DNA of 64,000 nucleotides from a virus (lineage: Duplodnaviria > Caudoviricetes): positions 32,001-96,000 of the IMG/VR virus record IMGVR_UViG_3300036778_000062. One strand, 5' to 3'. This document shows, piece by piece, positions 3 through 37,731 of the stretch. Position 1 is the stretch's first letter, and every line of letters starts with the position of its first letter. The notes under the pieces were generated by a model. It was not told the DNA's origin and did no database searches. It saw nothing but the letters and a program-made list of their open reading frames with translations. The translations under genes were made by a program, and so were the position numbers.

Positions 3-332
3 GCGGAGGCGCTGATTGCAGCCTATCACGCTGGCACCTACCACATAGGCATGCACGAGGAACGGTTCCGCAGGCCGCGCGGGCCATCCACAGCACCGCC
101 AATTGATGAATTCGAGGACGCTGAAGGGGATACGGCCAGGTACGTAGACCGGTATGGTGTGCGCGGCGCGCTCGGCGAAAACGCCACTGTATTGGATATG
201 GCTTGCGATGGGCGCACTTACCGAGAGATTGGCGAATATGTTTGTGCCGTAGGCTCTGTAGATACCCGAGAGAGGGCTGGTAAGAGAGCGGTTAGCGCGG
301 CGGCTAAATTATTTTCAGAAATTGCGGCCTGA
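3..332 (+). CDS. Partial (5'-truncated) HTH protein, probable late-gene activator/antiterminator
   Basis: Frame open from window start; VLDMACDGRTYREIGE sigma4/HTH-like motif; directly upstream of late operon; ends IAA. Confidence 0.55.
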   Translation, partial: AEALIAAYHAGTYHIGMHEERFRRPRGPSTAPPIDEFEDAEGDTARYVDRYGVRGALGENATVLDMACDGRTYREIGEYVCAVGSVDTRERAGKRAVSAAAKLFSEIAA

Positions 333-521
333 GTTTGCGGTTCGAGGCTCTCCCATTCCCATAATAGTAGGGGGATATTTTTACCCCCACTACTTACCTT
401 GCCGCCTTTCGATGTGCGGCCCCCGCGCTGGCCTGGCCACCGGGGTTAATTTCCCCGCCTATCCCGTGAGGGACAGCTCCGCACTAGGTTACGGCCTGTG
501 CGGCTTTCATTGCCCGGTGCC

Positions 522-680
522 ATGGTCCACGCTCGCAAGCCAGTTGAGGTTATCGCCGAGGAGCTGTGGGACGTGCCGTTCCCGGGCGAGACCGCGGAAG
601 ACATCATTGATGTCTTGGAGCGGGAGGGTTGGCGCTTGGTGTTTGTGCCAGATACAGAAAGTGTTGGAGTTCTCGACTAA
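522..680 (+). CDS. Small hypothetical protein
   Basis: ATG 522, stop overlaps next ATG (TAATG). Confidence 0.55.
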   Translation: MVHARKPVEVIAEELWDVPFPGETAEDIIDVLEREGWRLVFVPDTESVGVLD

Positions 681-1036
681 TGTGGTTTGTTTCCAAGGAC
701 GGCGCAAAAGGCAACGCGTTGGCGGCTTCTTGCTGGGGTCCGTTCGATAGCGAGGCTGATGCTGTCAAGGCTGCTGAGCATATTGCCGCTCGCGGCACTG
801 TTGCCGTGATCGGTCCTGGCGCTGTTACGCAGAAGGTTAGCACGACTGCGCCCACCGTCACTGTGACGCCGGTTGTTGCGCCAGCTGTACAGGCTGCTGC
901 TGTTGTGGCGCCGTCCCCGGCCCCGGCTGTGACTCCCGCACCGGCTGTTGCCTCTGTGGCTGCGCTGGGTGCCAAGCCTGCAGCCAAGCCACCGCTGTTG
1001 CAGCCGCACATGCAGCATCCCGCAGCCAAGAAGTAA
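680..1036 (+). CDS. Hypothetical protein with Ala/Pro/Val-rich C-terminus
   Basis: Translationally coupled start, GGAG upstream. Confidence 0.65.
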   Translation: MWFVSKDGAKGNALAASCWGPFDSEADAVKAAEHIAARGTVAVIGPGAVTQKVSTTAPTVTVTPVVAPAVQAAAVVAPSPAPAVTPAPAVASVAALGAKPAAKPPLLQPHMQHPAAKK

Positions 1037-1045
1037 GGTATTGCA

Positions 1046-1183
1046 ATGATTATCGACTTTATCGCACTTGCTGCCATTGCGGTCGCTATAGGCATTTTCG
1101 TGCACGAGCGCCGTCGGGCCAAGGCTGCTGCAGTTGTAGCACCTGCGCCAGTGGCTGTGGATCCTGCACCGCCCGCGGCCTAG
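1046..1183 (+). CDS. Small single-TM membrane protein (45 aa)
   Basis: MIIDFIALAAIAVAIGIFVHERRR...PPAA; AAGG upstream; below ORF-track cutoff. Confidence 0.55.
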   Translation: MIIDFIALAAIAVAIGIFVHERRRAKAAAVVAPAPVAVDPAPPAA

Positions 1184-1202
1184 CGGACCTGGTTTTCTGC
1201 GT

Positions 1203-1667
1203 GTGGCCAAGTCTATCGGTTTGGATGAAAATATATTGAGTAGCAGGTCAAAAAAGGACGCTCTCCTTGGGATGCCGACTGGCACTGCGTGGGGAAGATT
1301 ACGTAAGGAAGTTCTATTCAGTCTTGCAAAGAAGCTATGTCTGACGCGTTGTCATCGTTGCGATCAGGAAATTGAAACAGTCTCACAGTTATCAATCGAT
1401 CATAAAATAGACTGGCAATCGTCTGATACTCCGCTCGAAACGTTCATGGATATAGACAACATTGCCTTTTCCCACCTCAGTTGTAATGTTTCTGCGGCAT
1501 CAAGGCCCACAAAGAAATATCATTCAACTCGTGAACGCAATCGCGAGAATTTCCGTATCTACTACGAGAGAAATGGAGCTGAGTGGAATGAGCGACGCAA
1601 CGCAAGGCGAAGGAAGCCAACATTAGTCGCCAATGATAATCAATCACAAGCGGCGCTTGTTGGATAA
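1203..1667 (+). CDS. HNH-like endonuclease
   Basis: CHRC...IDH...NIAFSHLSCN motif. Confidence 0.7.
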   Translation: MAKSIGLDENILSSRSKKDALLGMPTGTAWGRLRKEVLFSLAKKLCLTRCHRCDQEIETVSQLSIDHKIDWQSSDTPLETFMDIDNIAFSHLSCNVSAASRPTKKYHSTRERNRENFRIYYERNGAEWNERRNARRRKPTLVANDNQSQAALVG

Positions 1668-1669
1668 CA

Positions 1670-1969
1670 TTGGACCAGCGGTCAGACCAGGCCAAACAAT
1701 GGCGACGTTGGTATTCCACCACTAGATGGCGATCAATAAGACAAACACAGTTGGCAATACAGCCGCTTTGCCAACGCTGCATAGCAATGGATATGGTTGA
1801 GGTTGCTACAGTTGTTCACCACGCAGATGGTGGACACAGGGGCAACGAAGACAAGTTTTGGTCAGGTCCATTCGAGTCATTGTGTAAGCCGCACCACGAT
1901 AGCGAGGGCCAGCGCGAGGACTTAGGGCAGACAATCATTTCATTCGGTTCTGATGGTTGGCCTAGTTAG
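1670..1969 (+). CDS. Terminase-associated HNH endonuclease (HK97 gp74-like)
   Basis: PLCQRC...ATVVHH...SLCKPHHD...DGWP, immediately before terS. Confidence 0.88.
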   Translation: MDQRSDQAKQWRRWYSTTRWRSIRQTQLAIQPLCQRCIAMDMVEVATVVHHADGGHRGNEDKFWSGPFESLCKPHHDSEGQREDLGQTIISFGSDGWPS

Positions 1970-2050
1970 GAACGGGGGTGTGGCAAAAGTCTCACACCTT
2001 AAGCAGAAAAGACCGGCGTCCAACAAAAACGCACAAAACCACAAATCAGA
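1970..2050. other. Putative cos (packaging) region
   Basis: Short intergenic GGGGGTGTGGCAAAAGTC...GACCG...AAAAA between gp74-like HNH and terS, the usual cos position in HK97-type phages. Confidence 0.5.
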
Positions 2051-2052
2051 AT

Positions 2053-4317: not shown

Positions 4318-5592
4318 ATGTCCTTCCTCGACAGATGGTTTAACAAAACCATTGACCTTAACGCGGCGAGCCAACCGTTTTGGAGCGGTTTCTTTGGCGC
4401 GAGGTCAACTTCTGGCGAGGAAGTCACATTTGATAGGGCCATGCAGCTCGATGCGGTGTGGGCGTGTGTCAATCTGATCAGCAATGCAATCGGAACGCTT
4501 CCGTGCATTGTTTATGGTGAAGACGGCGTTACGCCTGCAACAGATGACCCGCTTTACGACCTCTTGCACGACTTGCCAAACGTAGACGACACGGCACCAG
4601 AATTTTGGAATATGGTGGTGCTTTGTCTCCTGCTTGACGGCAACTTCTTTGCCGAGATCAAGCGCGTTGGTGGCAGGATTGTTGCTTTAAACCCGATGCA
4701 TCCGCTTGCGGTTCAGGTTAGGCGAGATCCTGAACGCGGATATGCCCGTTATTACGAGTACAATCAGCGTTTTTATATGCAGGCGCCGACAGGCGTGCGC
4801 CGCATTGAAGAAGTGGATATGTTTCACGTCCGCGGCCAGATGATTCCTGAGTGCGACCGCGGTCTTTCTCCGATTTATTTCGCGCATAATTCGATCGGGA
4901 ACGCCATTGCAGGCGAAAAAGCTGCCGGCAAGATGTTCAAGAGCGGCTTGATTGCGACCACTTTCCTGTTTGCTGACCAGGTTCTCAAGCCCGAGCAGCG
5001 AAAACAGATTGAGGATAGCCTCACAAAGTTTGCTGGGGCCGAAAAGGCCGGCGGCGTAACTGTGATGGAGGCGGGCATGAAGGCCCAGCCCATCACGATT
5101 AATCCGATTGACGCGCAAATGCTGGAGTCTCGGCAGTATAGCGTTGAGCAGATTTGTCGAATTTTTGGTGTCCCGCCCGTGATGATTGGCCACGCAGCCA
5201 ACGGCACGACGACTTGGGGTAGCGGGATTGAGCAACTGATCCTGCAATTCTACAAATCTTGCTTATTGCCTCTGGTTGGCCGCATCGAAGCGACGATTTG
5301 TCGAGATCTGTTGACGCCCCAGCAGCGTAAAAATCGCAAAGTGCGGTTTAATTTTACTGCGTATCTCGAAGGCGACAGCACCGCGCGCGCTAATTTCCTC
5401 ACCAAAATGGTTGCCGGTAGCATTTACACCGTCAACGAGGCGCGTGAGTACGAAAATAAGCCAGATGTCGAAGGTGGCGACAAGATTATTGCTAACGGCA
5501 CGATGACGCCGCTGGACAAGTTGGGCGAGCAGCCTGCAGCACCCGCACCACCCGTCACAAACGACAACAAACCACCCGCGAAGGCCGCATAG
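4318..5592 (+). CDS. Portal protein, HK97 family
   Basis: AVWACVNLIS, GLSPI, DAQMLESRQYSVEQICRIFGVPP, TVNEAR. Confidence 0.97.
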   Translation: MSFLDRWFNKTIDLNAASQPFWSGFFGARSTSGEEVTFDRAMQLDAVWACVNLISNAIGTLPCIVYGEDGVTPATDDPLYDLLHDLPNVDDTAPEFWNMVVLCLLLDGNFFAEIKRVGGRIVALNPMHPLAVQVRRDPERGYARYYEYNQRFYMQAPTGVRRIEEVDMFHVRGQMIPECDRGLSPIYFAHNSIGNAIAGEKAAGKMFKSGLIATTFLFADQVLKPEQRKQIEDSLTKFAGAEKAGGVTVMEAGMKAQPITINPIDAQMLESRQYSVEQICRIFGVPPVMIGHAANGTTTWGSGIEQLILQFYKSCLLPLVGRIEATICRDLLTPQQRKNRKVRFNFTAYLEGDSTARANFLTKMVAGSIYTVNEAREYENKPDVEGGDKIIANGTMTPLDKLGEQPAAPAPPVTNDNKPPAKAA

Positions 5593-8031: not shown

Positions 8032-8424
8032 ATGATAGTCCGCGCGCTACGAACGACGTTTGACAACAACTACGGCTCGTTGCATCAAGGCGCCGTCGCC
8101 GAAGTTGACGATTACACGGCGCGCGAGTTGATCGCACAGGGTTATGCGATCAAGGAATTGCCTCTTGCCCAGCAGGAGGCTGCGAATGACAACAGCCCTT
8201 TCGCCCAGACTGGTTCCCAGACTGGCGCGGATCCACTGCGGTCATTGTTGCTGGAGGACCTAGTGCAGGCTGCGCCGGTCTTGCCGCGGTTAAGCACAGA
8301 CCCGGAGTTCGCTTCCTCGCCATCAATAACGGATACAAGCTATGCCCATGGGCAGACGCTCTCTACGCCTGCGACTTCGACTGGTGGAAAGCGGAAGAGG
8401 GGGCGCCCTCGTTTGCAGCGCTAA
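8032..8424 (+). CDS. Small post-capsid protein (zero-frame product of frameshift gene)
   Basis: GGAG RBS, ATG 8032; compact N-terminal domain (GAVAEVDDYTARELIAQGYA) typical of genes after HK97 capsids, then low-complexity tail. Confidence 0.75.
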   Translation: MIVRALRTTFDNNYGSLHQGAVAEVDDYTARELIAQGYAIKELPLAQQEAANDNSPFAQTGSQTGADPLRSLLLEDLVQAAPVLPRLSTDPEFASSPSITDTSYAHGQTLSTPATSTGGKRKRGRPRLQR

Positions 8425-8840
8425 GAATTACGCAGGACGGATATAAGCCAAGGCCAGAGTGGGAATTGCGCGCCGTTACGTTGGTCAGAAACTGCGACAG
8501 GCTACTGTTTAACAGGTTTGGCGAGATTGGCTGGGGCGGCAACGGTGGCTTTCACGCGTTAAATCTGGCCATTCAGTTTGGCGCGCGACGTATTGTATTG
8601 GTTGGATATGATATGCGCGTCGACCACGGGACGCACTGGCACGGTGACCACCCGAAAGGGATGAATAATCCGGCGGCTGTGAACGTGAAGCGCTGGCGTC
8701 AAGTTCTAGACGCTCAGGCTGGGTTATTGAAAGAGATGGGCGTCGAAGTGTTAAACGCCTCCGCTGTTAGCGCGCTTGAAGCTTATCCCAAAATGACACT
8801 GGAAGCGGCGATATACGGTGGAATGAATGTCGCTGCTTGA
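8196..8840 (+). CDS. Maf/DUF115-like (sialyltransferase-fold) glycosyltransferase domain, reached by -1 frameshift
   Basis: Frame reads PDWRGSTAVIVAGGPS...AINN...WADALYACD...GGNGGFHALNLAIQFGARRIVLVGYDM; stop at 8187-8189 and no ATG/GTG/TTG until 8466. Confidence 0.75.
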   Translation, partial: PFRPDWFPDWRGSTAVIVAGGPSAGCAGLAAVKHRPGVRFLAINNGYKLCPWADALYACDFDWWKAEEGAPSFAALRITQDGYKPRPEWELRAVTLVRNCDRLLFNRFGEIGWGGNGGFHALNLAIQFGARRIVLVGYDMRVDHGTHWHGDHPKGMNNPAAVNVKRWRQVLDAQAGLLKEMGVEVLNASAVSALEAYPKMTLEAAIYGGMNVAA

Positions 8841-10621: not shown

Positions 10622-11177
10622 TAAGCCAATCCTGGTCTATCGCCCTCTGGTCGAGCGCACTGAATGGAATGGATGCGCCGCGCGTAACCCAGACCATAAT
10701 GCGTATGCCGAGCTGTATGCTTCAGTGAGAGATCGCTTCCATGTTGTCTCGATAGCGGATCTGGTGCCGGGAAAAGAGTGGATGGTTGGTCATGAGGTTG
10801 AAGTTGACCAGAAATTCCATGCCGGTGAATTGCCTTTCGAGACTCTTGCTGGGCTGTTTTCTATTGCGGCGATGGTATTTGCATCGCCTGGATTCGCGGT
10901 GATCCTGGCGCAAGCTGTAGAGACGCCGGTCGTGGCCGTCTTCGGCTCTTACGAGGCCAGTTATAGTTTTAGCGGTGGCGCGCGTTGGTGCCCGTACTTG
11001 GGAATCGACCCCATCAGGCCGTGCGACGATTTCAACCATAGCAATACGAAAGACAAAACCATTGACGTTGAAGCCGCCAAAGCCCGCATCGCCATATTCG
11101 CCGCCGAGGCGATCGAGCGTCACAATAGACGCGCCGAAGGCGGACTTGAGCGGGCTGCCAACGCGCTATGTGCATGA
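10614..11177 (+). CDS. GT-B glycosyltransferase, C-terminal half
   Basis: DKPILVYRP, LAGLFSIAAMV, ILAQAVETPVVAVFG motif; GTG overlaps cupin stop. Confidence 0.7.
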   Translation: MLDKPILVYRPLVERTEWNGCAARNPDHNAYAELYASVRDRFHVVSIADLVPGKEWMVGHEVEVDQKFHAGELPFETLAGLFSIAAMVFASPGFAVILAQAVETPVVAVFGSYEASYSFSGGARWCPYLGIDPIRPCDDFNHSNTKDKTIDVEAAKARIAIFAAEAIERHNRRAEGGLERAANALCA

Positions 11178-11688
11178 GGGCGAATTAGATGTTCTTATTC
11201 ATCTCGTCCGATCTTTGGATGCACGTGTGGTTGCAGAGTTTGGCTGCAACAATGGTCGCACCGCTGCAGCTGTATTGCGAAACGTGCTAACGATTGAGCG
11301 GTACATCGGCGTAGATGTACCTCTGGGATACGTCACGCCGTGTAAAGTACAGCGCCGAGAGGTGCCTCAGCGACCGGGCGAGTTGGCGCTAGCTGACGGG
11401 CGGTTTGAATTGGTGTTGCGCGACCGAGGCACGTTCGATCTATCCGCCAAAGACTTTCCTCAGTGCGATTTGATTTTTATTGATGGCGGACATGACGAGG
11501 CTGCTGTTCGAAATGATCGCGACCTTGCTTTGCGGGTTGTGCGCGCTGGCGGTCTTATTGTTTATCATGACGATAATGGCCTTCGTACCGTTGATGTTAG
11601 TCGCGTGCTTGACGATATCCACGATAACGGCGCTGATGTCAGGCATGTTTCGGGGACTTGGCTGGCATTTGAGTATGTGGGGGGATAA
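11068..11688 (+). CDS. Class I SAM-dependent methyltransferase (Methyltransf_24-like); start uncertain
   Basis: EFGCNNGRT, DLIFIDGGHD, GGLIVYHD motifs. Confidence 0.88.
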   Translation: MKPPKPASPYSPPRRSSVTIDAPKADLSGLPTRYVHEGELDVLIHLVRSLDARVVAEFGCNNGRTAAAVLRNVLTIERYIGVDVPLGYVTPCKVQRREVPQRPGELALADGRFELVLRDRGTFDLSAKDFPQCDLIFIDGGHDEAAVRNDRDLALRVVRAGGLIVYHDDNGLRTVDVSRVLDDIHDNGADVRHVSGTWLAFEYVGG

Positions 11689-11690
11689 CC

Positions 11691-11969
11691 ATGGCTACTG
11701 AGATCCTCGCAATTGGGTCGACCGCTGCAAGCAGCTCGGATGTTACCGTTGCTAGCGGAGACACGCTGACTGTTGCGCTCAAGGATGCGACGCCTCCACG
11801 TGTTAACGGCGGCGTGGTCAAGATCGAACTAAAGGCAGACAACGGCAGCTATTTCGAGGTCGGCGAACTTGCTGGCGCTAATGGCAAGACAGGCGCAGTG
11901 ATCGACGCGCCTGGCACCTATCGATTTACGCGCCTGGCTGGCTCGGCATGCGGGGTTTTTAGTGCGTAG
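11691..11969 (+). CDS. Small beta-rich virion protein (possible spike base/adaptor)
   Basis: All-beta pattern, PGTYRF motif, precedes lectin gene. Confidence 0.65.
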   Translation: MATEILAIGSTAASSSDVTVASGDTLTVALKDATPPRVNGGVVKIELKADNGSYFEVGELAGANGKTGAVIDAPGTYRFTRLAGSACGVFSA

Positions 11970-13362
11970 CATTGCGCGGCCACTGCTGCGACCGTGCTCA
12001 AGGCCTATCGTGCAATATAGCGAGCGCGGTGGCGCACACTCTGCGGATCCAGACTGGGCGGCTGCATGGACGCTGGGCACGGGTGACAAGCCGTCTGCCG
12101 TGCTAGAATTCGCCAACGGTCGCTACTTTGATGGCACCACGAACAGCACAGTGCTCTCGACGCTCGTTGCAAACAGTCCAACCGTGACGCCTGGCGTCGG
12201 TATGGTTTGCGACGGCACGAACTTCGCAACGCTTAGCGCGCTCCTCGATGGCATCAAAACGGCTGGCGGCGCAACGATCGTGGTCGAGGCTGACGGCGGC
12301 GACAACAGTACCGCGACAGGCTTGATGGGCTTTACCAGCGGTAACCCGGACAGTCCGTTTATCGCCAATGGCAGCGGCACCACCGCCACCATGAATTGCT
12401 GGAACGGCACCAACATGGCCGGCCCGGTCGCGGTCGATGTGTCCAAGCGCTACCCCTACGCCGCTGCGTGGAACAATACAGGCATCATCAAGTCTGCGAC
12501 ACTGGCGAACGTCGCGACGAACTCGCAAAACTTCACCAACCCGATTACGGGCGCGGTGCTAGGCTCGTGGAACGGTGGCTTTGCCTGGGGCGGTCATATC
12601 CGCTCGATCGCGGTCTATCCGGTGGTGGTCAGTGATGGCTATCTCGCGCAGATGTCTTGGCCGTCGAAATTTTCGCGGCCGTATGATGGCGTGGCAGCAC
12701 TCGCGATCAGCGGCGGGTGGGTTGGCTGTGGCAGCACTCTCGCGTCGTACTTCAAGACCGGCGCCGCGTGGACGATGTTCTACAATGGCGTGCTGTCGTC
12801 TTCGTCGTCCGGGCAGCTTTGCGTGCTGTTCACGAACGTGCACGAAGGGGCAACACCTCCGTGGTATGGGACCGAAGTCTATGTGCACGATAGCGGCATC
12901 ATCCGTGTCCAGATCATGTCGGGTTGGGACGGCAGCAGCCTGACCAACCTCATCCGTGTCGAGGGCAGTACCAAAGTTTACGACGATCAGGGTCACACCA
13001 TCACAGTGGCGAGGGATGACAGCAACCTTGCCGCCGGCATTGAAATCCTGGTTGATGGCGTTCCAGAGACCCTGACGGTCGCCGCCGACAACATCACAGG
13101 TCCCATCGACACCACCTTGGGCGAATTTGAGATCGCGGGTCAGTTCGGCGGCTTTTCCAATGTGCGGATGGACACCATGATCATGTCCAGCACCAAGCGC
13201 CCACATTCCTACACAACTGACGCTATCGCCGCCGGCCGACGTCCCGCAGCGGATGCCGACACGCTGGGCTACTATGACTTCCGCGAGGGCACGGGCACCA
13301 CGACCGCCGATAAATCCGGTAACGGCAACACGGGCACGATCCATTCTGGAACGTGGATATGA
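11962..13362 (+). CDS. LamG/ConA-like double-domain virion fibre or spike
   Basis: GHIRSIAVY and GYYDFREGTGTTTADKSGNGNTGTI motifs. Confidence 0.8.
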   Translation: MRSIARPLLRPCSRPIVQYSERGGAHSADPDWAAAWTLGTGDKPSAVLEFANGRYFDGTTNSTVLSTLVANSPTVTPGVGMVCDGTNFATLSALLDGIKTAGGATIVVEADGGDNSTATGLMGFTSGNPDSPFIANGSGTTATMNCWNGTNMAGPVAVDVSKRYPYAAAWNNTGIIKSATLANVATNSQNFTNPITGAVLGSWNGGFAWGGHIRSIAVYPVVVSDGYLAQMSWPSKFSRPYDGVAALAISGGWVGCGSTLASYFKTGAAWTMFYNGVLSSSSSGQLCVLFTNVHEGATPPWYGTEVYVHDSGIIRVQIMSGWDGSSLTNLIRVEGSTKVYDDQGHTITVARDDSNLAAGIEILVDGVPETLTVAADNITGPIDTTLGEFEIAGQFGGFSNVRMDTMIMSSTKRPHSYTTDAIAAGRRPAADADTLGYYDFREGTGTTTADKSGNGNTGTIHSGTWI

Positions 13363-18988: not shown

Positions 18989-19207
18989 TTCAATAGATAG
19001 GCCGAAATATCGGCGCACCGCTCGACTCTCAATGATGGCTCGCAGCAGAACTGCGGCTGGTCCCTTGACTCCATCCCGCTCCCAGCGGCGCCACTGGGCG
19101 CCATCGTTAATACCGACGAGGGCGGCGGCTTCTGTTGCGGAAAGCCTTAGAGCAGATCGCGCGGCCCTAACTTCGTCCGCACGGATGGGGGATGTGCGGT
19201 CAATCAT
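18983..19207 (-). CDS. XRE-like HTH regulator
   Basis: EVRAARSALRLSATEAAALVGI...WRRWE. Confidence 0.8.
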   Translation of the reverse strand: MIDRTSPIRADEVRAARSALRLSATEAAALVGINDGAQWRRWERDGVKGPAAVLLRAIIESRAVRRYFGLSIEL

Positions 19208-19436
19208 GCTGGGTAAAGTCGTGGATATCAGTGGTGGCGCGTTCGAAGGCATCGCTGGCGAGTTTTCCCACCGCAGCTAGCTTCGGCTCGCACCTGGACA
19301 TGTCGTATATCCGCTGCAGGGCCGTCAAGGCTGTTTTTAGCCGCGCATCTGTTCCGCGCTTAATCGCGACTATCTGCGCGTGGTTGTTTCTCCAAAGAAT
19401 GGCTTCTTTTCGCCAGTCGCTGGCTCGCTCTTCCAT
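19200..19436 (-). CDS. Hypothetical protein (moron)
   Basis: GGAG RBS, abuts upstream stop. Confidence 0.6.
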   Translation of the reverse strand: MEERASDWRKEAILWRNNHAQIVAIKRGTDARLKTALTALQRIYDMSRCEPKLAAVGKLASDAFERATTDIHDFTQHD

Positions 19437-19646
19437 TTACGCATCTCCAGTCTTGATCACGTAATCAATATCGGTCTCGCGATCCTCGGCGCTCAATACG
19501 CGACTGATGAATGCAACTTCGTTTCCTTCAGCATCATCGAAACATTCGTAACGATAGTCTCCGTCTCGCTCAATGCGAGGTTCCTGCCTCACATGCATGG
19601 GGCAGTTTGCAACAATGAAAGCTTCAAATTCTGCCTTGGTGGTCAT
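19437..19646 (-). CDS. Hypothetical protein (moron)
   Basis: First ORF after consensus promoter. Confidence 0.6.
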   Translation of the reverse strand: MTTKAEFEAFIVANCPMHVRQEPRIERDGDYRYECFDDAEGNEVAFISRVLSAEDRETDIDYVIKTGDA

Positions 19647-19770: not shown

Positions 19771-20451
19771 ATGACCCGCTCACTTTCCGACGCTAATTTC
19801 GCCGCGATTCAACAGCGGCGCATTGTGCCGCGCGATTTCATTTGGCTGATTGCGCGTGACCGCTCTAGCGGCGCCCCTGTAGCCGAAGGTGTCTGGTCGG
19901 GGCAGGGGAATTTCACTGCTGCGGTGATCGACCCGCATACAGGCGGCAGTCAGGACCGCGCGTTTTTCGGTTCTGGTGCGTTGGTTTCGGTGGGCAATAT
20001 TCCGCTGGTGCAAGGCATCACGGTGCAGACGCTTACCATCACGATGTCTGGCGTCAATGCGGCGTTCAATGATTACGTTCGCACCAATGACCTGAAGCAA
20101 GCCGAAATCCAAATCTTCCGTGGCTTTCTCGATCCTGGCACCAGACTCCTTGTTGCGCCTGCCGTCCCCCGATTTGTCGGTTACATCGACGATGCGCCAA
20201 TCACGACGCCAAAGGAAAACACCAGCGGCGCGATCACGATTACGGCGACGTCAAATACGCAGGAATTGACGCGCGCAAATTCCGATACGCGCTCGGATGC
20301 CAGCCAGCGTCTGCGCGCCGCCAATGATAACTTCTATCAAGACACCGCAGTTGTCGGCGGCTGGAAGTTTTTCTGGGGTCTCTATAACGGCAGCTTGGCA
20401 ACGACTGGAAGCAATTTCGACCCATCAACACATCCGTCCCACGCCAGATGA
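19771..20451 (+). CDS. Tail tip hub protein (gpL/DUF2163-like)
   Basis: Position; RFVGYID, RSDASQRLR motifs. Confidence 0.75.
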   Translation: MTRSLSDANFAAIQQRRIVPRDFIWLIARDRSSGAPVAEGVWSGQGNFTAAVIDPHTGGSQDRAFFGSGALVSVGNIPLVQGITVQTLTITMSGVNAAFNDYVRTNDLKQAEIQIFRGFLDPGTRLLVAPAVPRFVGYIDDAPITTPKENTSGAITITATSNTQELTRANSDTRSDASQRLRAANDNFYQDTAVVGGWKFFWGLYNGSLATTGSNFDPSTHPSHAR

Positions 20452-23488: not shown

Positions 23489-23895
23489 CAGTTCCTCGCG
23501 TTATTCTCGGTAAATACAACGACGGCGTGACGATCGGCATGCGCTCGTCTCTGCAGGGGTTCAATGCTTTGACCGAGAGTCCCGACAGCGGCGGCATGTC
23601 GTTTGACAGCACTTGGACGGACATTGCGTCAGCGCTGCAGGTGGGAATCGTATCGGCTCCATCGTCTGGCTTCACGATAACCGTTAATTTTACGAGCCCG
23701 GGATATGTCCCATTCTGTGAAGTGCGAATGGTGCAGGGCGACACTGTCTTTGACGATGGTGTTTTCGGTTCCGGCACATCTGCAGTGTTCGGCGTCGGGG
23801 CCGTTATCGGTACGAGCACGATCACGATTCCAAATCGAACACTAGGCGTTGCGTATATCTACACGATCCTAAACATCCCTGTGCAATCTGGATGA
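23485..23895 (+). CDS. Tail tip accessory protein 1
   Basis: ATGA overlap; MTVPRVILG. Confidence 0.7.
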   Translation: MTVPRVILGKYNDGVTIGMRSSLQGFNALTESPDSGGMSFDSTWTDIASALQVGIVSAPSSGFTITVNFTSPGYVPFCEVRMVQGDTVFDDGVFGSGTSAVFGVGAVIGTSTITIPNRTLGVAYIYTILNIPVQSG

Positions 23896-24281
23896 CAGTA
23901 CCCCGCATTCGCATCGGTGATAGGGCCAACGGTGACATTGGCGTATTCATATCGCCAACTGGTGTTGATGCGACGACTGCTAGCGACTCGCAGCTGGTCA
24001 TGGGCATCTCCACCAAAATCTCAAATCTGATCTTGCTTGGTCATGTCAGCAGTTCTGCGTTGGTGCCGTTGGGTCTGCATAGTCGCCCCTTCATCTTCCT
24101 GACCAGTCAATACAGTTTCAGCGGCGTTATCGGACATACTGCTGGTCCAGGGCCTATGAGGCCCTCGCCTCCAGTTAGTGGCGGCAGCAGCGCGTCCGCT
24201 CTGATCAATAGCAGCGGGGCATCCATGAGCATCACCGCGTCAACATCGGTTTATTACATTGTTTATTCTGCGACATACTGA
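23892..24281 (+). CDS. Tail tip accessory protein 2
   Basis: ATGA overlap; MTVPRIRIG...SPTGVDATTA. Confidence 0.7.
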   Translation: MTVPRIRIGDRANGDIGVFISPTGVDATTASDSQLVMGISTKISNLILLGHVSSSALVPLGLHSRPFIFLTSQYSFSGVIGHTAGPGPMRPSPPVSGGSSASALINSSGASMSITASTSVYYIVYSATY

Positions 24282-24814
24282 TGACAGTTGAGCGCCTGAA
24301 AATCGATATCAACGGAACGTTCCGGGTGGGCGCTCCCGGTAACGATGCCACGACTGCTGAATTTGACAATCTTCTTTTCGATATCAATCAGCCGCCCCTG
24401 CGCTTGGCGCAGAACGGCGTGTTCATGCTGAATTGCATTCCTGATGGGAGCTATCAAAGCGGCGTCAACCTTGTCGAGGGCGGCGCTATTACAGTGTCGC
24501 CTGCCGCGCCGTCTGGCTCTACCGCGATATTTTTGACAGCCAATCGATGCCCCTATGTCGTGGCCGTGGGTGCAACACCGACACCGATGGGATTCCCGGG
24601 CGAGGTTAGAACGCCTGCGATGAACTACTCGACGATCGGAGGCCTTGATGGGATCGGTGCCGGTTCCGCCGGCTATAAAGGTGCTGGCGGCGCGATCTGC
24701 AGCAATACCTTCATAGGCTTCACGGCGACACCAAATGCGTTCGATAACAGCATCAGCTTGAACAGATTCAATTTCGTTTACATCAACTATGCAATTTTTC
24801 GGAACTTCACTTAA
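24281..24814 (+). CDS. Tail tip accessory protein 3
   Basis: TGATG overlap; MTVERLKID...APGNDATTA..NLLFD. Confidence 0.7.
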   Translation: MTVERLKIDINGTFRVGAPGNDATTAEFDNLLFDINQPPLRLAQNGVFMLNCIPDGSYQSGVNLVEGGAITVSPAAPSGSTAIFLTANRCPYVVAVGATPTPMGFPGEVRTPAMNYSTIGGLDGIGAGSAGYKGAGGAICSNTFIGFTATPNAFDNSISLNRFNFVYINYAIFRNFT

Positions 24815-24823
24815 GGACGATAG

Positions 24824-25273
24824 ATGCTTTTCGCGCTCTACAATGAAGACGATGGTGACACTGGTCCGCGCGGCAGCATTCACCAATCCAACAAGGTCTA
24901 TCACGAACCGGACGCATATCACGGCGTCCTGAAGGACCACGGGCATAAATATGTGACGTCACCGATCCACGGCCCGGTTTCGCCAATGCATTTCATGGTC
25001 GACGTCGACGCGTCGCAACTTGTCGAGCGGCCGTTGATGCCGGTCACTGTTTCAAAGACCACGATCAAAGCCGGCGGCAATGACTCGGTGGTGTTCAAGA
25101 ATATCCCAAAAGGCGCGGTGATGGCGGTTACTGTGATGAACATTCCGATTCACGGTGAGAAAGTCGACACGGCCGACCGCGACTTCGCCACCACCGTTCC
25201 GGGCCTCTATCGGGTCGCATTCGATCTGTGGCCATTTCGTCGTTTCGAAATTGATATCGAGGCCGTTCAATAA
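24824..25273 (+). CDS. Tail-associated protein
   Basis: AAGGA RBS, operon context. Confidence 0.7.
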   Translation: MLFALYNEDDGDTGPRGSIHQSNKVYHEPDAYHGVLKDHGHKYVTSPIHGPVSPMHFMVDVDASQLVERPLMPVTVSKTTIKAGGNDSVVFKNIPKGAVMAVTVMNIPIHGEKVDTADRDFATTVPGLYRVAFDLWPFRRFEIDIEAVQ

Positions 25274-29318: not shown

Positions 29319-29546
29319 ATGCCTAGCGCGCCACAGGTGCGTCTGATCGACAATTGGCGCGCTGAAGCCAAGCGCCTCTGGAGCATCCGCGTCGGGCTGT
29401 TTTTCGGCGCACTTAATGGCGCGATGCTTGGCCTTGCGGCCTTCGTCAACACCATCGACCCGATCTGGTTTCTGATCCTTAACATTCTCGGCTGGACCAT
29501 CCTTGTCGGGGCTCGCCTTCTTAAACAACCAGGAGCAGACGTATGA
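29319..29546 (+). CDS. Holin
   Basis: LIDNWR...LWSIR, two TMs, ARLLKQP; before lysin. Confidence 0.82.
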   Translation: MPSAPQVRLIDNWRAEAKRLWSIRVGLFFGALNGAMLGLAAFVNTIDPIWFLILNILGWTILVGARLLKQPGADV

Positions 29547-30070
29547 CCGCAGCAGTAATAGCCAAACCGAAGGCCGGCAAAGTCGCTGGATTAAGCGCTG
29601 CCGGCGCCACGCTGGCTGCGCTACTGGTTGGCCATTGGGAGGGCATGAGCACTGTAGCCGTGCATGAGAAGTTCGATCCTCCGGGAGTCATAACGGTTTG
29701 CGGCGGGATTACCAATGCCGATTGGCCCTGGCTCAAGCCTGGCATGAAATTCACGGTGGAGACGTGCCGCCAAGCGCTTGCTGATGCAGCGAACCGCTAT
29801 GCGGTGAAGGTGGCGCAGCAGTGTCTACCCGATATATCGACCATGCCGCCACACAGGCAGGCCGCTATCGCGTCGTTCGCCGTAAACCTCGGACCCGGTC
29901 GGGTGTGCGGAACGTCGATCGGCCGCGACCTACGCGCAGGCCGTGTCAAGCAGGCGTGCAATGCCATGGTGAAGTACGTCTACGCCAACGGCAAGCGGCT
30001 ACCGGGATTGGCCTACCGGCGCACGGACTCCATGTGGGGCGAGCAGCCGTGGTGCCTGCGCAATGATTAG
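29543..30070 (+). CDS. Endolysin, GH24 lysozyme with SAR-like N-terminus
   Basis: WEG...D...TVCGGIT, SFAVNLG, LPGL..RR. Confidence 0.9.
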   Translation: MTAAVIAKPKAGKVAGLSAAGATLAALLVGHWEGMSTVAVHEKFDPPGVITVCGGITNADWPWLKPGMKFTVETCRQALADAANRYAVKVAQQCLPDISTMPPHRQAAIASFAVNLGPGRVCGTSIGRDLRAGRVKQACNAMVKYVYANGKRLPGLAYRRTDSMWGEQPWCLRND

Positions 30071-31134: not shown

Positions 31135-32430
31135 ATGCCAACGCCACCCGTTTCAAGCGAGGATATTGCGCGGACAGTCGAAGTCCGAAAGCGCCATGCC
31201 ACCAATGTGGATGCGGGAAGGGAGCTTGGAGTAGACGAAAAGACCGTTCGTCGGCACATGGTGTTGGCGGCTGAAAGGGGGCTGCTGGGGCCTGAGGAAA
31301 CGAAGCCTGGCTATGTTCTGAAGAGCATAGCATCCAAAGCGCCGGATGGCAGCTGGACTAAGCAGGTTAAAGAGGCCGGGCCAGAATTCAAGCCTACTGA
31401 TGGCTTGGCCATAAACGGCAAGACGACATGGACCAATGCTGAGGGACGAATCACTCAGCAAGTCACCATGGAGCGCAAGGACGCCAAGGCGCAGCTTGAG
31501 ATCATGCGCGCCGCGGTTGCCGGGTTTAAGGATGAGATTCCGAGGGCCGCACCAATAACTCGACCGTCATGGCCACTTGCCATATATCCTCAGTCACGCG
31601 CTCCTAACGAGTCGCTTTTAAACCAGTTCACCGTAACTGATAGCCACTTCGGTATGCTTTCGTGGCGCGAGGAAACTGGTTCCGATTATGATTTGCGAAT
31701 TGCAGAGGAATTGCTGCTTGATTGGTTTTCGGCCGCAATTGCCAATTCACCTGATGCACACACCGCACTCTTCGCGCAGCTAGGCGACCTGATGCACCAT
31801 GACGCTCTTGAGAGCGTCACGCCCGCCCATCGCCATGTGCTTGATGCAGATTCGCGGCTGCAAAAGGTCATTCGCATTGTCATCAAGACAATCCGCCGCG
31901 CTATCGACATGCTCCTGCACAAACATGAGCATGTCCATTGCGTGATGGCTTCTGGCAATCATGACCCGGCATCGTCTGCGTGGCTGCGTGAGATGCTTGC
32001 GGCCATGTACGAGAACGAGCCGCGCGTCAGCGTCGATAATAGTCCGTCGCTTTATTACGCCTATCGGTGGGGCTACACCGGCCTCTTCTATCACCACGGG
32101 CACAAGCGCGACATCAATACGGTTGACGCCACGCTGGCCGGATTGTTCCGAGAAATATTCGGCGCGTGCAGGATTTGCTATGCGCACGTTGGCCACAAGC
32201 ACAGCGACGAAGGCAAGAAAACCAATCTCATGTACGTGGAGCGGCACGAGACCTTGGCCGCGCCCGATGCCTTCAATGCTGGCGGCGGCTGGCTGTCCGG
32301 TAGGTCAGCCAAGGTCATCACTTATTCGAGGCATGGAGGAGAGGTGTTCAGGTCGACGCTTCGTCCCGAGATGGTTGCTGGTTCATACGTTGCAGCCAAC
32401 GACAACGAGCCTGTGCGGAGGGCGGCGTGA
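31135..32430 (+). CDS. N-terminal HTH plus calcineurin-like metallophosphoesterase
   Basis: DSHFG, LGDLMH, SGNHD, HHGH, GHKH motifs. Confidence 0.88.
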   Translation: MPTPPVSSEDIARTVEVRKRHATNVDAGRELGVDEKTVRRHMVLAAERGLLGPEETKPGYVLKSIASKAPDGSWTKQVKEAGPEFKPTDGLAINGKTTWTNAEGRITQQVTMERKDAKAQLEIMRAAVAGFKDEIPRAAPITRPSWPLAIYPQSRAPNESLLNQFTVTDSHFGMLSWREETGSDYDLRIAEELLLDWFSAAIANSPDAHTALFAQLGDLMHHDALESVTPAHRHVLDADSRLQKVIRIVIKTIRRAIDMLLHKHEHVHCVMASGNHDPASSAWLREMLAAMYENEPRVSVDNSPSLYYAYRWGYTGLFYHHGHKRDINTVDATLAGLFREIFGACRICYAHVGHKHSDEGKKTNLMYVERHETLAAPDAFNAGGGWLSGRSAKVITYSRHGGEVFRSTLRPEMVAGSYVAANDNEPVRRAA

Positions 32431-32573
32431 TGGAGGGCTGGCAGATTATTGAAGAGGCGTGGCAAGCGTTTGATAAGTGGCGTGCTGAGCAGACTGACGA
32501 GGTTCAAGAGTTGGACATAGTGGCTCAGATCAATTTGTATTACGCCGCCTCTACGCAAGTTGAGGCCGCATGA
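32430..32573 (+). CDS. Small hypothetical protein (47 aa, ends EAA)
   Basis: TGATG and ATGA overlaps on both sides. Confidence 0.6.
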   Translation: MEGWQIIEEAWQAFDKWRAEQTDEVQELDIVAQINLYYAASTQVEAA

Positions 32574-32964: not shown

Positions 32965-33389
32965 CCTACACCATCCGAGAAGTCGACGGCGAAGACGAAG
33001 ACATCGCCGAAACGCTAGACGCGCTCCACGACCTTTGCTTCCTGGATGCAGCGCTGCGCGTTAAGTACGACTACGGCCATTGGTGGATTGCATACGCATG
33101 CAAAGAACCGGCCGGATTTGCTGGCATCACGCCAAGCACGATCGGTCCTGGCGTTGGCTATTTGAAGCGCGCTGGCGTTCTGCCGGCGCACCGTGGGCAT
33201 GGCCTACAGCGGCGCTTGCTGAAGGTACGCGAGGCGCGCGCTAGGAAATTGGGTTGGTCATCAGTGATTACGGATACGACGGACAATGTGCCGAGCGCGA
33301 ATAATTTGATTGCGTCTGGGTATCGGTTGTTCAGCCCTGAGCCATGGGCGTTCAAGCATAGCTTGTATTGGATGAAGGAGTTGCAATGA
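32961..33389 (+). CDS. GNAT acetyltransferase
   Basis: VLPAHRGHGLQRRL, NVPSANNLIASGY. Confidence 0.88.
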   Translation: MTYTIREVDGEDEDIAETLDALHDLCFLDAALRVKYDYGHWWIAYACKEPAGFAGITPSTIGPGVGYLKRAGVLPAHRGHGLQRRLLKVREARARKLGWSSVITDTTDNVPSANNLIASGYRLFSPEPWAFKHSLYWMKELQ

Positions 33390-33529
33390 GCGACGATGAA
33401 CTAAAGGCTGCACTGCGTGCAGCGTTCAAGGAAGCGATTGAAAAGATTGGCATTGATGCTTTCCGTAGCACGTCTTGGTTTCTTGCCGGGCGCAGGAACC
33501 TCGCTACGCAAGTTGCGGAGGCTGCGTGA
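33386..33529 (+). CDS. Small hypothetical protein (47 aa, ends EAA)
   Basis: AAGGAG RBS, overlaps on both sides. Confidence 0.6.
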   Translation: MSDDELKAALRAAFKEAIEKIGIDAFRSTSWFLAGRRNLATQVAEAA

Positions 33530-34032: not shown

Positions 34033-34728
34033 GTGGCAGACCCCATGAGGCATATTGAGGGGCAGATTGCTGCCGCGAAGCGCAGCAAGCCAATAGAGGT
34101 GCGCAGCCTATCCACGGCCGACACAGACACCGAGTATTACACGCCGCCGTATCCGACGCTTGATGGCAACACACTGACTGTTCCGGTCGGTGGGATGGCG
34201 GACAAGGTGCGTGACGCGCGGTGGGGCGGCGCGGAGATCAGGATTAACGGCGCGCGCTATAGCGTTACGGAATTTTACGAGGAGGGCAGATTTTTGGTTG
34301 ATAAGATTGCAGAGGATTTGCCGACGTCAGAGTGGCACCCGACTATTGGCCAGCCGGAGGCGGCCAATAGTGTGGAGTCAATTGGACACGTTCATGGCGT
34401 GGAGTTCGTTTGTGTACCAGCCAACGACAACTACACCACCCTCCGCACCATCCTGGACGCTGCCTTCAACCACGCCGCAGTCGGCAAGGGCAAGGAGCGT
34501 CACGCGCGCGGCCTGCCATTTGATGAGCAGCCCATGATGCAGACCACAAGGCTGGTCGGGCCAGGCTTTCCTTTGGGGCAGGCCATCAAGAAGGCGGGCG
34601 AGGCTGCGGGCATGATCGAGCGCGCGGAACTAGATGCGGCTGAGGCCGAGTGCTTGGGCGCGATCAACTATCTGTCCGGGGCGGTGGCTTGGATGAGGGA
34701 AGTTAAAGAGGGGATGGCGGCGGCGTGA
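34033..34728 (+). CDS. Conserved phage protein with all-helical C-terminal domain
   Basis: GKGKERHA...PFDEQP...GQAIKK...ECLGAINYL. Confidence 0.7.
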   Translation: MADPMRHIEGQIAAAKRSKPIEVRSLSTADTDTEYYTPPYPTLDGNTLTVPVGGMADKVRDARWGGAEIRINGARYSVTEFYEEGRFLVDKIAEDLPTSEWHPTIGQPEAANSVESIGHVHGVEFVCVPANDNYTTLRTILDAAFNHAAVGKGKERHARGLPFDEQPMMQTTRLVGPGFPLGQAIKKAGEAAGMIERAELDAAEAECLGAINYLSGAVAWMREVKEGMAAA

Positions 34729-34937
34729 GCGACTATCATCTTGATTTAAGATATATCGCGATAACCGGGCCGGGGGTTGACGCCTTTGAGAACCGGAAAG
34801 AAACCGGATGCAAGCATGAGGTCACGATTGCTGAGGAGAGGGCCAGCATCGATCGAGTCAAGCACAAGGTATTTGCTGGACTGAAGATGCTTCGGCTTGC
34901 GGCGGTTCGGCGCGTTCCAATTGCTGTCGCCGCGTAG
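34725..34937 (+). CDS. Hypothetical protein (ends VAA)
   Basis: GTGA overlap. Confidence 0.55.
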   Translation: MSDYHLDLRYIAITGPGVDAFENRKETGCKHEVTIAEERASIDRVKHKVFAGLKMLRLAAVRRVPIAVAA

Positions 34938-34960
34938 CGGCACAGCAATCCACATGCAAC

Positions 34961-35791: not shown

Positions 35792-35817
35792 TTTGGTTTT
35801 GGCTCCTGTGAATGTTC

Positions 35818-36006
35818 TTAACGCGACCAGCCTTGGCCGAGTCGGCGGGACATCGCGCGACCGACCTGACCGATCAGGATTTCCTTGTGCTTGCTGGTCT
35901 CGAAAGCTTCGACCGAAGCAACGAAGCCGTTTGCAATCGCGAACTTCACCATTTTGTTGTAGGCCTTGAGGGCGCGGGCTTGGCGGTTTGCTTCGGTCTT
36001 GGTCAT
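35818..36006 (-). CDS. Small basic hypothetical protein
   Basis: GGAG RBS; first gene after promoter. Confidence 0.6.
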   Translation of the reverse strand: MTKTEANRQARALKAYNKMVKFAIANGFVASVEAFETSKHKEILIGQVGRAMSRRLGQGWSR

Positions 36007-36041
36007 TTGCTTTCTCCGTTGTTTCCGTCTTCGATGAAAAC

Positions 36042-36080
36042 AACATACGCAATTTTTGCGTAATACGCAAGAGTTGCGTA
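36042..36080 (-). promoter_or_regulatory. sigma70-like promoter with two tandem palindromic operators
   Basis: TTGCGT-N17-TATGTT on - strand; TACGCAA-N3-TTGCGTA at 36046-36062 and 36064-36080. Confidence 0.78.
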
Positions 36081-36258
36081 TATCACGAATTGTTACAGAT
36101 GGTTATTGATCGCCGACATCTAGCCATTGCGACACCAAATATTTGGCTGTAAATCAGCGTGGCCCCCACGCCCAAAACTGGTTTCAACTTCACCCTGTTT
36201 TGCCACCAATTCAGGGTATCCATTGTGGTAAACAATCGTTGATATTGTTGGGGAACTA

Positions 36259-36309
36259 GCCGGCCTGTCACGCCGGAGGTCGCGGGTTCGAGCCCCGTCT
36301 CTCGCGCCA
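36259..36309 (+). tRNA. tRNA-Asp(GTC) 3' fragment = att core (not a complete gene)
   Basis: CCGGC-CTGTCAC-GCCGG anticodon arm, GCGGG-TTCGAGC-CCCGT T arm, CCA end; D arm and 5' acceptor strand missing. Confidence 0.9.
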
Positions 36310-36347
36310 TCATTTCAATGGCTTAGCACCCCTCCCTAAAACCGCTT

Positions 36348-36379
36348 GTCCAAGGTTGGCCGGCTACCTTGGACTTTCT
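36348..36379 (+). terminator. Hairpin downstream of tRNA fragment
   Basis: GTCCAAGGT-N9-ACCTTGGAC-TTTCT. Confidence 0.5.
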
Positions 36380-36606
36380 ACCCGGTTTCGTTCCGCGCTC
36401 CCCGGAGCCCAAAACGGGCTTTCCAGGTGCCTATCGACCCGACGGCTCCCCGAACCACGGCCCGGATCGAAATAGCGCCCACGGGGCCGTTCTGGCCGAT
36501 TCCCAGCCGCTTTAAAGCAAACGCAACCAGCAGCGAGCCATCCCTGTTCCGATCCCAAGGGGTAGGGGCATTTGCGCCGGTCGTGGGCGTGCGCTTTGAT
36601 GGTGGG

Positions 36607-37062
36607 ATGTCGCCCCGGATTATCACCCTCCCGCTCTCAGGCCGTGACCGCAAGCATTACATCCGCGAGCTGCGCATGGCCGTGCAGCAGCATCCGGTCG
36701 TCGTGCGCCAGGCTGCGGAGGCGCGCGCTGTCGCCGATCGGCTGGAATGCGAGGAATGGAGTATTCGCCAGTTTATCGGCGGCCCGGCCGAGCCGTCGCC
36801 CTCGATCGCTCAGGCCCTCAATGCTGGCCGGGACCTCCTCGAGGTGCGCTGTCGGCGCTGCAATCACGGCGACTACATTGCGCTCGCCGACTTGGTGCTG
36901 CCGCGAGAGCGGCCGGTCCACACGCTAGCCAAAGTGCTGGCCTGCCAACCCTGCTCGAGGAACGGCCGGCCCAAGCAGCGGCCGGATCTGGTCGCCCTGA
37001 TCGAGCAGCCCGCGAATGATCCGGCCGGGCCGGCCAAGGCGGCACGCGCTCAAAAGGGCTGA
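36607..37062 (+). CDS. Zn-ribbon protein preceding SRAP
   Basis: SPSIAQALNAG..LLEVRCRRC...LACQPC. Confidence 0.75.
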   Translation: MSPRIITLPLSGRDRKHYIRELRMAVQQHPVVVRQAAEARAVADRLECEEWSIRQFIGGPAEPSPSIAQALNAGRDLLEVRCRRCNHGDYIALADLVLPRERPVHTLAKVLACQPCSRNGRPKQRPDLVALIEQPANDPAGPAKAARAQKG

Positions 37063-37065
37063 ACG

Positions 37066-37731
37066 ATGTGTAATCTCTATTCGATTACCACGAATCAGGC
37101 GGCGATCGCGGCGCTCTTCCGCCGCTTGAACCGGTATGCCGGCAATCTCGCGCCGATGCCGGGGGTGTTTCCAGACTATCCAGCGCCGGTCATCCGCAAT
37201 GCCGGCGGTGACGCCGAAGAGATGGAGATGATGCGTTGGGGCATGCCGCCACCGCCGCGCGCCGGCGGCTTCCCCGTCACCAACATTCGCAACACCGCCT
37301 CGCCGCATTGGCGCGCATGGCTTAAGCGGGAGAACCGTTGCCTGGTCCCGGCAAACAGCTTCGCCGAATACGCACCCGAGCCGAATCCCGCGACGAAGAA
37401 AAAGGATGTCGTGTGGTTCGCGCTTAACGATGATCGCCCGCTTTTCACCTTCGCCGGGATATGGACCGAGTTCAAAGGCGATCGAGGAACGAAATCCAAG
37501 CCGATCGCGGGACCGCATCTGGTCTACGGTTTCCTTACCACCGAGCCGAATGCCGTGGTCGCCCCGATCCATCCCAAGGCCATGCCGGTAATCCTGACCA
37601 CCGAAGAGGAGCGCAACGTCTGGATGCGCGCGCCATGGGACGAAGCCAAATCGTTACAGCGACCATTGCCGGACGATGCGCTGAAGATCGTGATGCGCGG
37701 TGCGGACAAGGAAGACAGGGCCGCAGCATGA
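37066..37731 (+). CDS. SRAP family abasic-site processing protein (YedK/HMCES-like)
   Basis: N-terminal [35 protein letters not shown]. Confidence 0.95.

Follow-up and report, generated by a model that had tools for sequence, protein, structure and literature searches.

The SspB adaptor binds the head of the ssrA tag, the peptide encoded by transfer-messenger RNA (tmRNA), and tethers the tagged substrate to ClpX, which engages the Ala-Ala carboxylate at the end of the tag; in alphaproteobacteria, the part of the tag bound by the adaptor is (A)ANDN. To our knowledge, no natural substrates of SspB-alpha other than tmRNA-tagged proteins have been described so far, and among phage proteins known as substrates of host ClpXP or other AAA+ proteases, we know of none for which a copy of the tag's adaptor-binding head has been described. 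In Caulobacter, where the tag reads AANDNFAEEFAVAA, ssrA-tagged proteins decay more slowly upon deletion of SspB (PMC9393093). Full-text literature searches found no paper describing encoded mimics of the tag in phages. Here, we describe such mimics in a 64,000-nucleotide stretch (the window) comprising bases 32001-96000 of a single 140,645-bp contig, the Caudoviricetes virus record IMGVR_UViG_3300036778_000062. Prophage 1, the first of two tandem prophages on this contig, encodes both conserved ends of the host tmRNA tag in the loose ends of approximately one-quarter of its proteins, as read from their sequences. The phage-encoded ends share with the native system of alphaproteobacteria the AANDN head and the Ala-Ala carboxylate end, and the adaptor is present in the hosts.

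Results

The head of the tmRNA tag is enriched in prophage 1 proteins

Genes were called over the whole contig with a simple self-trained caller, which missed the HNH endonuclease gene of the window. A further 32 kb of prophage 1 precede the window, and most of the ANDN and Ala-Ala signal lies there (contig 9.4-32 kb). The called proteins of prophage 1 contain ANDN 16 times, as compared to 0.21 occurrences expected from composition (Poisson p ~6e-25), or 17 times when the HNH endonuclease is included, and ANDN is the top over-represented 4-mer of this proteome (78-fold). None of its 11 anagrams is enriched (0-2 occurrences each), ruling out a composition artefact as the source. The 17 sites are written in 12 nucleotide spellings, and ANDN is therefore selected as protein and not as DNA; the same spellings rule out a DNA repeat, and the three tails in the window likewise differ in DNA. 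Six-frame translation of the whole contig yielded 24 xNDN peptides, 21 of them in frame in called genes, plus the HNH site. Host proteins, sampled as two 400-kb chromosome pieces from a Brucella and a Rhizobium carrying related prophages (846 open reading frames [ORFs]), contained 2 ANDN in a total of 245,000 residues, none in a C-terminal tail.

Eight proteins carry the motif near the C terminus (as TNDN in the portal), with Ala preceding it in most. Five are encoded in the early operon upstream of the window, namely a SpoU-type methylase (tail ...GAANDNSNLGAAA), a sigma factor (...LAANDNVLARKAA), an N6 DNA methylase (...FANDNAPAKAGAA), a C5 DNA methylase (...IAANDNSEESACDAA), and a resolvase-like protein (...LAANDNGEGK), and three in the window, the HNH endonuclease, the portal, and an SbcD-like exonuclease. 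Seven of the eight tails are of native tag length, with 7-9 residues after ANDN (four in the resolvase-like protein), and six end in Ala-Ala, the exceptions being the HNH endonuclease and the resolvase-like protein. The three tails in the window had been quoted in an earlier, sequence-only reading of this DNA, and all were found: VANDNQSQAALVG for the HNH endonuclease (stop at 1667), VTNDNKPPAKAA for the portal (stop at 5592), and VAANDNEPVRRAA for the exonuclease, there called a phosphoesterase (stop at 32430). The tails lie in frame within ORFs and the contig holds no tmRNA gene; therefore, these are mimics rather than tmRNA tags.

In three proteins, ANDN also stands at the N terminus, inside the first six residues; these are the sigma factor, the C5 methylase, and the ORF with its stop at window position 332. 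The N-terminal ANDN peptide of the phage reads MTPTPANDNRPA. An SSB-like protein (contig 16751-17311) carries two ANDN near its end. Internal ANDN sites noted earlier in the proteins starting at 8032 and 34033 are present (8182-8193 and 34420-34431), and an additional site was found at 20320-20331; this last one, in a tail-region protein, may be a chance or non-functional instance. Mimicry of the tag is well supported, but the view of these sites as tags is too narrow; with ANDN also found at N-termini and in interdomain linkers, it behaves as a separable docking motif. On sequence grounds, two separable motifs, (A)ANDN and a terminal [A/V]-Ala, are under selection at the protein level, and where both meet in one C-terminal tail they reproduce the head, the length, and the end of the host tag.

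Two side observations concern acidic-hydrophobic C-terminal tips of the kind found in bacterial SSB (DDDIPF). The phage SSB-like protein is without such a tip and has the two ANDN motifs instead. An SF2 helicase (contig 23153-24886, upstream of the window) has an end (...AAGDNWDEDIPF) with a tip of this type, and its orthologues in phages 16-3 and NV1.1.1 end in ANDN-x4-ANDN...ELDDEVPF.

Ala-Ala ends are concentrated in the early operon and are not explained by translational coupling

Of the 128 prophage 1 genes, 28 end in Ala-Ala, as compared to 3.8% of the 846 host ORFs (p ~6e-14). The comparison of phage and host proteomes that the sequence-only reading had proposed as its check thus gave enrichment of both elements (ANDN, 16 sites in prophage 1 versus 2 in 245,000 host residues; C-terminal Ala-Ala, 28/128 versus 3.8%). 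The ends are unevenly distributed, with 20/48 (42%) in the rightward early operon and 2/38 (5%) in the packaging, head, and tail block, and approximately 20 further early proteins have the Ala-Ala end alone. Prophage 2, on the same contig, has 6/108 Ala-Ala ends and a single ANDN.

Within the window, Ala-Ala-stop was found at each of the stops listed previously (332, 1183, 5592, 8840, 32430, 32573, 33529, 34728, 34937, and 37731). Nine of these had been assigned to prophage 1, and all nine ends exist, although the ORFs stopping at 1183 (45 amino acids) and 34937 (70 amino acids) are weak gene calls. The tenth, of the SRAP peptidase, had been counted into the pattern; its gene belongs to prophage 2, in which Ala-Ala ends occur at a near-background frequency, and so it is not part of the pattern. 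A further Ala-Ala end in the early operon, upstream of the window, belongs to a 433-residue protein with a PHROG "transposase" match (phrog_4285, contig 10794-12095).

Many of the Ala-Ala ends read GGAGGCNGCNTGATG, in which the stop codon and the next start share bases and the start has GGAGG as its ribosome-binding site. Such an arrangement could yield Ala-Ala as a by-product of Shine-Dalgarno (SD) and start-stop signals: the stop is overlapped by a start in 18 of the 28 Ala-Ala genes, TGA is used in 24, and eight end in Glu-Ala-Ala with GAGG positioned as a ribosome-binding site. However, Ala-Ala is equally common where no downstream start overlaps (10/51 genes, p ~2e-5 against the host rate) as where one does (18/77), ruling out coupling or an SD by-product as the main cause. 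Prophage 2, with as much gene overlap, has few such ends (1/46 without an overlapping start and 5/62 with one). With Ala-Ala ends as common without an overlapping start and rare in prophage 2, coupling shapes the codons and does not explain the residues. The use of TGA in 24/28 Ala-Ala genes, as compared to 48/100 other prophage 1 genes, arises in part from GCG or GCA followed by TGA, which forms GTGA or ATGA overlaps; it is also seen where no downstream gene overlaps.

The tails are conserved in their families

The strongest argument for reading these ends as copies of the tag is evolutionary. ANDN is kept in the tail of 114 of the 120 best exonuclease homologues (59-100% identity), which come from Brucella, Sinorhizobium, Agrobacterium, Mesorhizobium, and phage NV1.1.1, the rest being from metagenome assemblies. 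Among the 104 distinct tails, Ala precedes ANDN in 98, 7-9 residues follow it in 100, and the last residue is Ala in 101, with Ala (60) or Val (42) as the penultimate residue. The linker between the end of the domain (...PEMV) and the motif ranges from 1 to 13 residues, and the sequence of the spacer varies freely. In an AlphaFold model of the exonuclease, the predicted local distance difference test (pLDDT) score exceeds 95 up to approximately residue 410 and falls to 62-71 over residues 411-431, which hold the tail, consistent with a flexible tail outside the folded domain. Of 150 distant representatives, 147 are without an ANDN tail, most stopping at or near the conserved domain end ...PEM[LVI]; the tail is therefore an add-on of this clade. 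Many of the distant homologues come from enterobacterial and Vibrio phages, and no tag-like tail was found among these. Seventeen of the 150, probably from diverse hosts, end in Ala-Ala without ANDN, often as ...PEMLEAA after the domain, and a plain Ala-Ala end may therefore be recurrent in the exonuclease family outside the 16-3 lineage.

Portal homologues have hypervariable tails rich in Pro and Ala; 84 of 109 distinct C-termini end in Ala-Ala, and approximately one-quarter contain ANDN or AN[TQSN]N. Degenerate forms seen in place of ANDN are ANTN, ANQN, ANSN, ANNN, and ANKN. These forms suggest Ala-Asn-x-Asn as the constrained core in this family. Across 18 related prophage loci, ANDN occurs 40 times as compared to 0.84 expected, often as an invariant island in an otherwise variable linker (e.g., between PrimPol and helicase domains), and 12% of ORFs end in Ala-Ala. 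Judged from these orthologous sequences, the final Ala-Ala is under purifying selection.

Hosts of related prophages have ANDN tags and SspB

tmRNA tags were read with ARAGORN from five genomes that hold related prophages: ANDNKAQGYALAA, ANDNYAEARLAA (twice), ANDNYAPVAQAA, and ANDNNAKEYALAA. All five start with ANDN and have the form ANDN-x8-9-AA, and once the alanine carried by the tmRNA is counted, the added peptide starts with AANDN. Comparison with the host tag, as proposed by the sequence-only reading, therefore gave a match in head, length, and Ala-Ala end for these related hosts, while the middle of the tag is not copied. SspB (PF04386) adjoins ssrA in four of the five genomes and is present in 40 of 41 sampled genomes of the order; relatives with solved structures are those of Agrobacterium (2nys) and Caulobacter (2qas/2qaz). 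No phage-encoded SspB or tmRNA was found.

The trait belongs to the lineage of phage 16-3

Two isolated phages related to prophage 1, Sinorhizobium phage NV1.1.1 and Rhizobium phage 16-3, served as replicates. NV1.1.1, whose host is S. meliloti, has 20 ANDN as compared to 0.16 expected and Ala-Ala ends in 25 of 99 annotated coding sequences, and its sigma-factor orthologue keeps the N-terminal ANDN. The first 50 kb of 16-3 contain 12 ANDN as compared to 0.1 expected, and its portal ends in ...PPTANDNQEDEAEAA. Rhodobacter phage RcBigEagle, a temperate phage from another alphaproteobacterial order, has no ANDN, 3/59 Ala-Ala ends, and an exonuclease homologue without the tail. With two positive relatives and this negative, the trait is one of the 16-3-like lineage and not of all phages whose hosts use ANDN tags.

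Genomic context

The 3' part of tRNA-Asp occurs in three direct copies (contig 75-142, 68259-68326, and 139232-139283), the complete tRNA-Asp lying at contig 49-125, and the contig therefore holds two prophages in tandem at one tRNA site. Prophage 1 extends over 68 kb from the tRNA to window position 36326; prophage 2, unrelated to it, follows from 36.3 kb on, which places SRAP in the second prophage. Prophage 1 is a temperate siphophage of the 16-3/NV1.1.1 lineage at the tRNA-Asp of a Hyphomicrobiales-type host. Its closest prophage relatives (59-65% portal identity) are in Hyphomicrobiales, namely Ferirhizobium, Ensifer/Sinorhizobium, Rhizobium, Agrobacterium, Brucella/Ochrobactrum, Devosia, and a Bradyrhizobiaceae metagenome-assembled genome. 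At the right end of the contig, 1.3 kb of flanking host sequence gave only short, weak matches among 401 genomes of the order.

From the left, prophage 1 consists of a leftward arm on the integrase side, a long rightward early operon (contig 9.4-33.7 kb), a structural block (HNH endonuclease, terminase, portal, S49 protease, HK97-type capsid, and tail genes; window 1203 to ~28057), and a right arm with lysozyme, the SbcD-like exonuclease, and small genes. The position of the lysozyme gene indicates that the lysis module and the tagged exonuclease have the tail genes on one side and attR on the other, an arrangement shared with 16-3 and NV1.1.1. Also upstream of the window is a complete DnaN-type beta sliding clamp (contig 18401-19459; PF00712, PF02767, and PF02768), which is found in 16-3 as well (p081). 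Features of the window are collected in Table 1.

Table 1. Tag-like ends, ANDN sites, and landmarks in the window. ANDN coordinates are window positions; the ends shown are the last residues before the stop codon.
Feature	Position	Strand	Details
3' part of a 173-residue early ORF (contig 31811-32332)	3-332	+	Ends ...SEIAA; ANDN at residues 4 and 45, just upstream of the window
45-residue ORF, weak gene call	1046-1183	+	Ends ...PPAA
HNH endonuclease	1203-1667	+	ANDN 1629-1640, then 8 residues; ends ALVG (head without Ala-Ala end)
HK97-type portal	4318-5592	+	TNDN 5557-5568; tail TNDNKPPAKAA
130-residue protein, after capsid gene	8032-8424	+	Internal AANDN 8179-8193
124-residue ORF	8466-8840	+	Ends ...NVAA; stop without overlapping start codon
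226-residue tail-region protein	19771-20451	+	Internal AANDN (ANDN 20320-20331)
Phage lysozyme (PF00959)	29543-30070		Right arm, 3' of tail genes
SbcD-like DNA repair exonuclease (phrog_704)	31135-32430	+	Tail VAANDNEPVRRAA; ANDN 32395-32406; folded domain ends near residue 414
47-residue ORF	32430-32573	+	Ends ...VEAA
47-residue ORF	33386-33529	+	Ends ...AEAA
231-residue protein, function not assigned	34033-34728	+	Internal PANDN (ANDN 34420-34431); ends ...MAAA
70-residue ORF, doubtful gene	34725-34937	+	Ends ...AVAA; minus-strand ORF 34746-34955 scores equally
Direct repeat of tRNA-Asp 3' part	36259-36326 (contig 68259-68326)	.	attR of prophage 1 and attL of tandem prophage 2
SRAP peptidase (PF02586), prophage 2	37066-37731	+	Ends ...RAAA

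Discussion

While the mimicry is solid on the basis of the sequences, the routing through SspB and ClpXP is inferred from them. The tag-like ends probably tie the lifetime of phage proteins to the host SspB-ClpXP protease. SspB would dock on ANDN and tether the protein to ClpX, which would pull on the Ala-Ala terminus; an ANDN at the N terminus or in a linker fits a putative tethering motif for which adjacency to the protease handle is not required. Non-structural proteins would therefore be short-lived and would be cleared at the end of early expression or upon leakage from the prophage. Virion proteins would be spared, as they are without the signal, with the exception of the portal; assembly would conceal the portal tail, which could act as a degron that removes unassembled subunits. 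Taken as a whole, the best explanation, and one that we hold to be rather probable, is that this lineage encodes motifs copied from the tag for adaptor-assisted turnover of its non-structural proteins.

Several observations weigh against adaptor-assisted turnover. The HNH endonuclease, the helicase, the SSB-like protein, and the resolvase-like protein carry the motif without an Ala-Ala end. Beyond ANDN, the phage tails are unlike the host tags, with ANDN-x-P and basic residues in place of the host ANDN-[YNK]-A. The tags and SspB are those of hosts of related prophages. In E. coli, a terminal Ala-Ala is needed but is often a weak degron alone (PMC10862746).

The sequence-only reading had offered two roles for the routing, as timers of the carriers or as decoys for the protease. 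If a decoy, ANDN would bind SspB to occupy or redirect the adaptor and the protease and not to destroy the carriers; the many abundant early carriers would titrate SspB/ClpXP and so stabilize other substrates or blunt host quality control, or would instead recruit ClpX as a remodelling chaperone for replication or packaging complexes. This seems to us unlikely. Many ANDN sites do occupy N-termini or linkers where the protein has no Ala-Ala end, as in the helicase, in the SSB-like protein (two motifs), and in PrimPol linkers of relatives, and a role of ClpX as a phage remodeller is, as is generally known, established for Mu and lambda. However, each tail is conserved alone in its own family, including its distance from the C terminus and the final [A/V]-A, while a collective decoy tolerates single losses, and the avoidance of the signal by virion proteins suggests a cost to proteins that must last. 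The timer fits the sequences better than the decoy, because the tails are conserved individually in each family and the signal sits on early enzymes and regulators and is near-absent from virion proteins.

Less probable again is that ANDN docks on another hub, the phage beta sliding clamp or an organizer of the replisome or of recombination, with the likeness to the tag coincidental and Ala-Ala a separate matter. Such a hub is conceivable, and counts against adaptor-assisted turnover, in view of the phage's own DnaN-like clamp (shared with 16-3 and probably NV1.1.1) and of carriers that are mostly DNA-handling enzymes or a sigma factor. The placement of the motif at termini and in linkers is also that of clamp-binding or PIP-type motifs, and the helicase combines the degenerate forms DNDN and AGDN with a DEDIPF end like the SSB tip; its orthologues in 16-3 and NV1.1.1 have two exact ANDN. 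In contrast to the hydrophobic clamp-binding motifs, which by general knowledge are of the QL[SD]LF type, ANDN is polar and flanked by sequence rich in Ala, Pro, Lys, and Glu, and the phage clamp keeps the conserved ...MPVRI C terminus of the canonical pocket. A hub would also leave unexplained the preceding Ala, the fixed distance of 7-9 residues from the C terminus, and the conserved final Ala-Ala; a chance exact match to the head of the host tag is expected at ~1 in 10^5 for a 4-mer; and proteins that do not handle DNA, such as the portal, carry the motif too. A capsid-targeting or prohead-protease site was set aside, as approximately 20 early enzymes carry the motif and identity with the host tag would be left unexplained.

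The proposal that the ends have no function at the protein level, with Ala-Ala derived from SD and start-stop signals and ANDN from composition or a DNA repeat, is largely refuted and very improbable, as Ala-Ala does not follow the overlapping starts, prophage 2 is equally coupled but poor in Ala-Ala ends, ANDN has 12 spellings and no enriched anagram, and the tails are conserved as amino acids across homologues of 59-100% identity in different gene contexts.

Should adaptor-assisted turnover hold, a further possibility, which we regard as speculative and improbable, is that the early programme acts as a sensor of the host's trans-translation load, with phage proteins and tmRNA-tagged fragments competing for SspB and ClpXP. 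Ribosome stalling would then spare the sigma factor, the replication proteins, and the nucleases and so favor lytic growth or induction, while in a healthy lysogen leaked early proteins would be erased, amounting to a proteome-wide, adaptor-gated switch made from a copied host degron.

That degrons of the ssrA/SspB/ClpXP type are naturally encoded across a phage proteome is partly supported by the sequences described here. If true, a lineage of temperate rhizobial phages, including the model phage 16-3, has copied both functional ends of a host quality-control tag, and the copies program the lifetimes of the phage's own proteins, a natural counterpart of the ssrA tags of synthetic biologists. 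SspB-alpha would then have natural substrates beyond tmRNA-tagged proteins, a set of graded natural degrons would be at hand for alphaproteobacteria, and the development of the phage would be linked, in a testable manner, to the ribosome-rescue load of its host.

As compared to known systems, the closest is the native tag itself, which has 8-9 residues after ANDN in the related hosts where the phage tails have 7-9. The native tag is added to broken proteins by trans-translation, whereas the phage tails are gene-encoded on intact proteins and do not copy its middle; moreover, the phage also uses the two elements singly, the head at N-termini or in linkers and the Ala-Ala end on many proteins. 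Degrons of the CtrA type on Caulobacter cell-cycle proteins, as is generally known, likewise use Ala-Ala as a ClpX handle together with a separate element for adaptor contact, but they depend on other adaptors (CpdR, RcdA, and PopA) and have no ANDN motif. Among phage and prophage proteins, lambda O, MuA, the Mu repressor, and CI of S. aureus prophages (PMC10584840) are similar in that an AAA+ protease of the host sets the stability of regulatory or replication proteins; unlike in this phage, these are individual degrons on one or two proteins. Engineered ssrA tags, such as the adaptor-dependent DAS+4 (PMC8138137, PMC9382460), also place a gene-encoded tail of the ssrA type on a folded protein, and in these adaptor-dependent decay results from pairing an intact SspB site with a weakened ClpX end, a behavior that the frequent R-[A/V]-A ends of the phage could share. 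The engineered tags are man-made and sit on single proteins, whereas the phage tails are natural, are found on some 25 proteins, and are conserved across the lineage.

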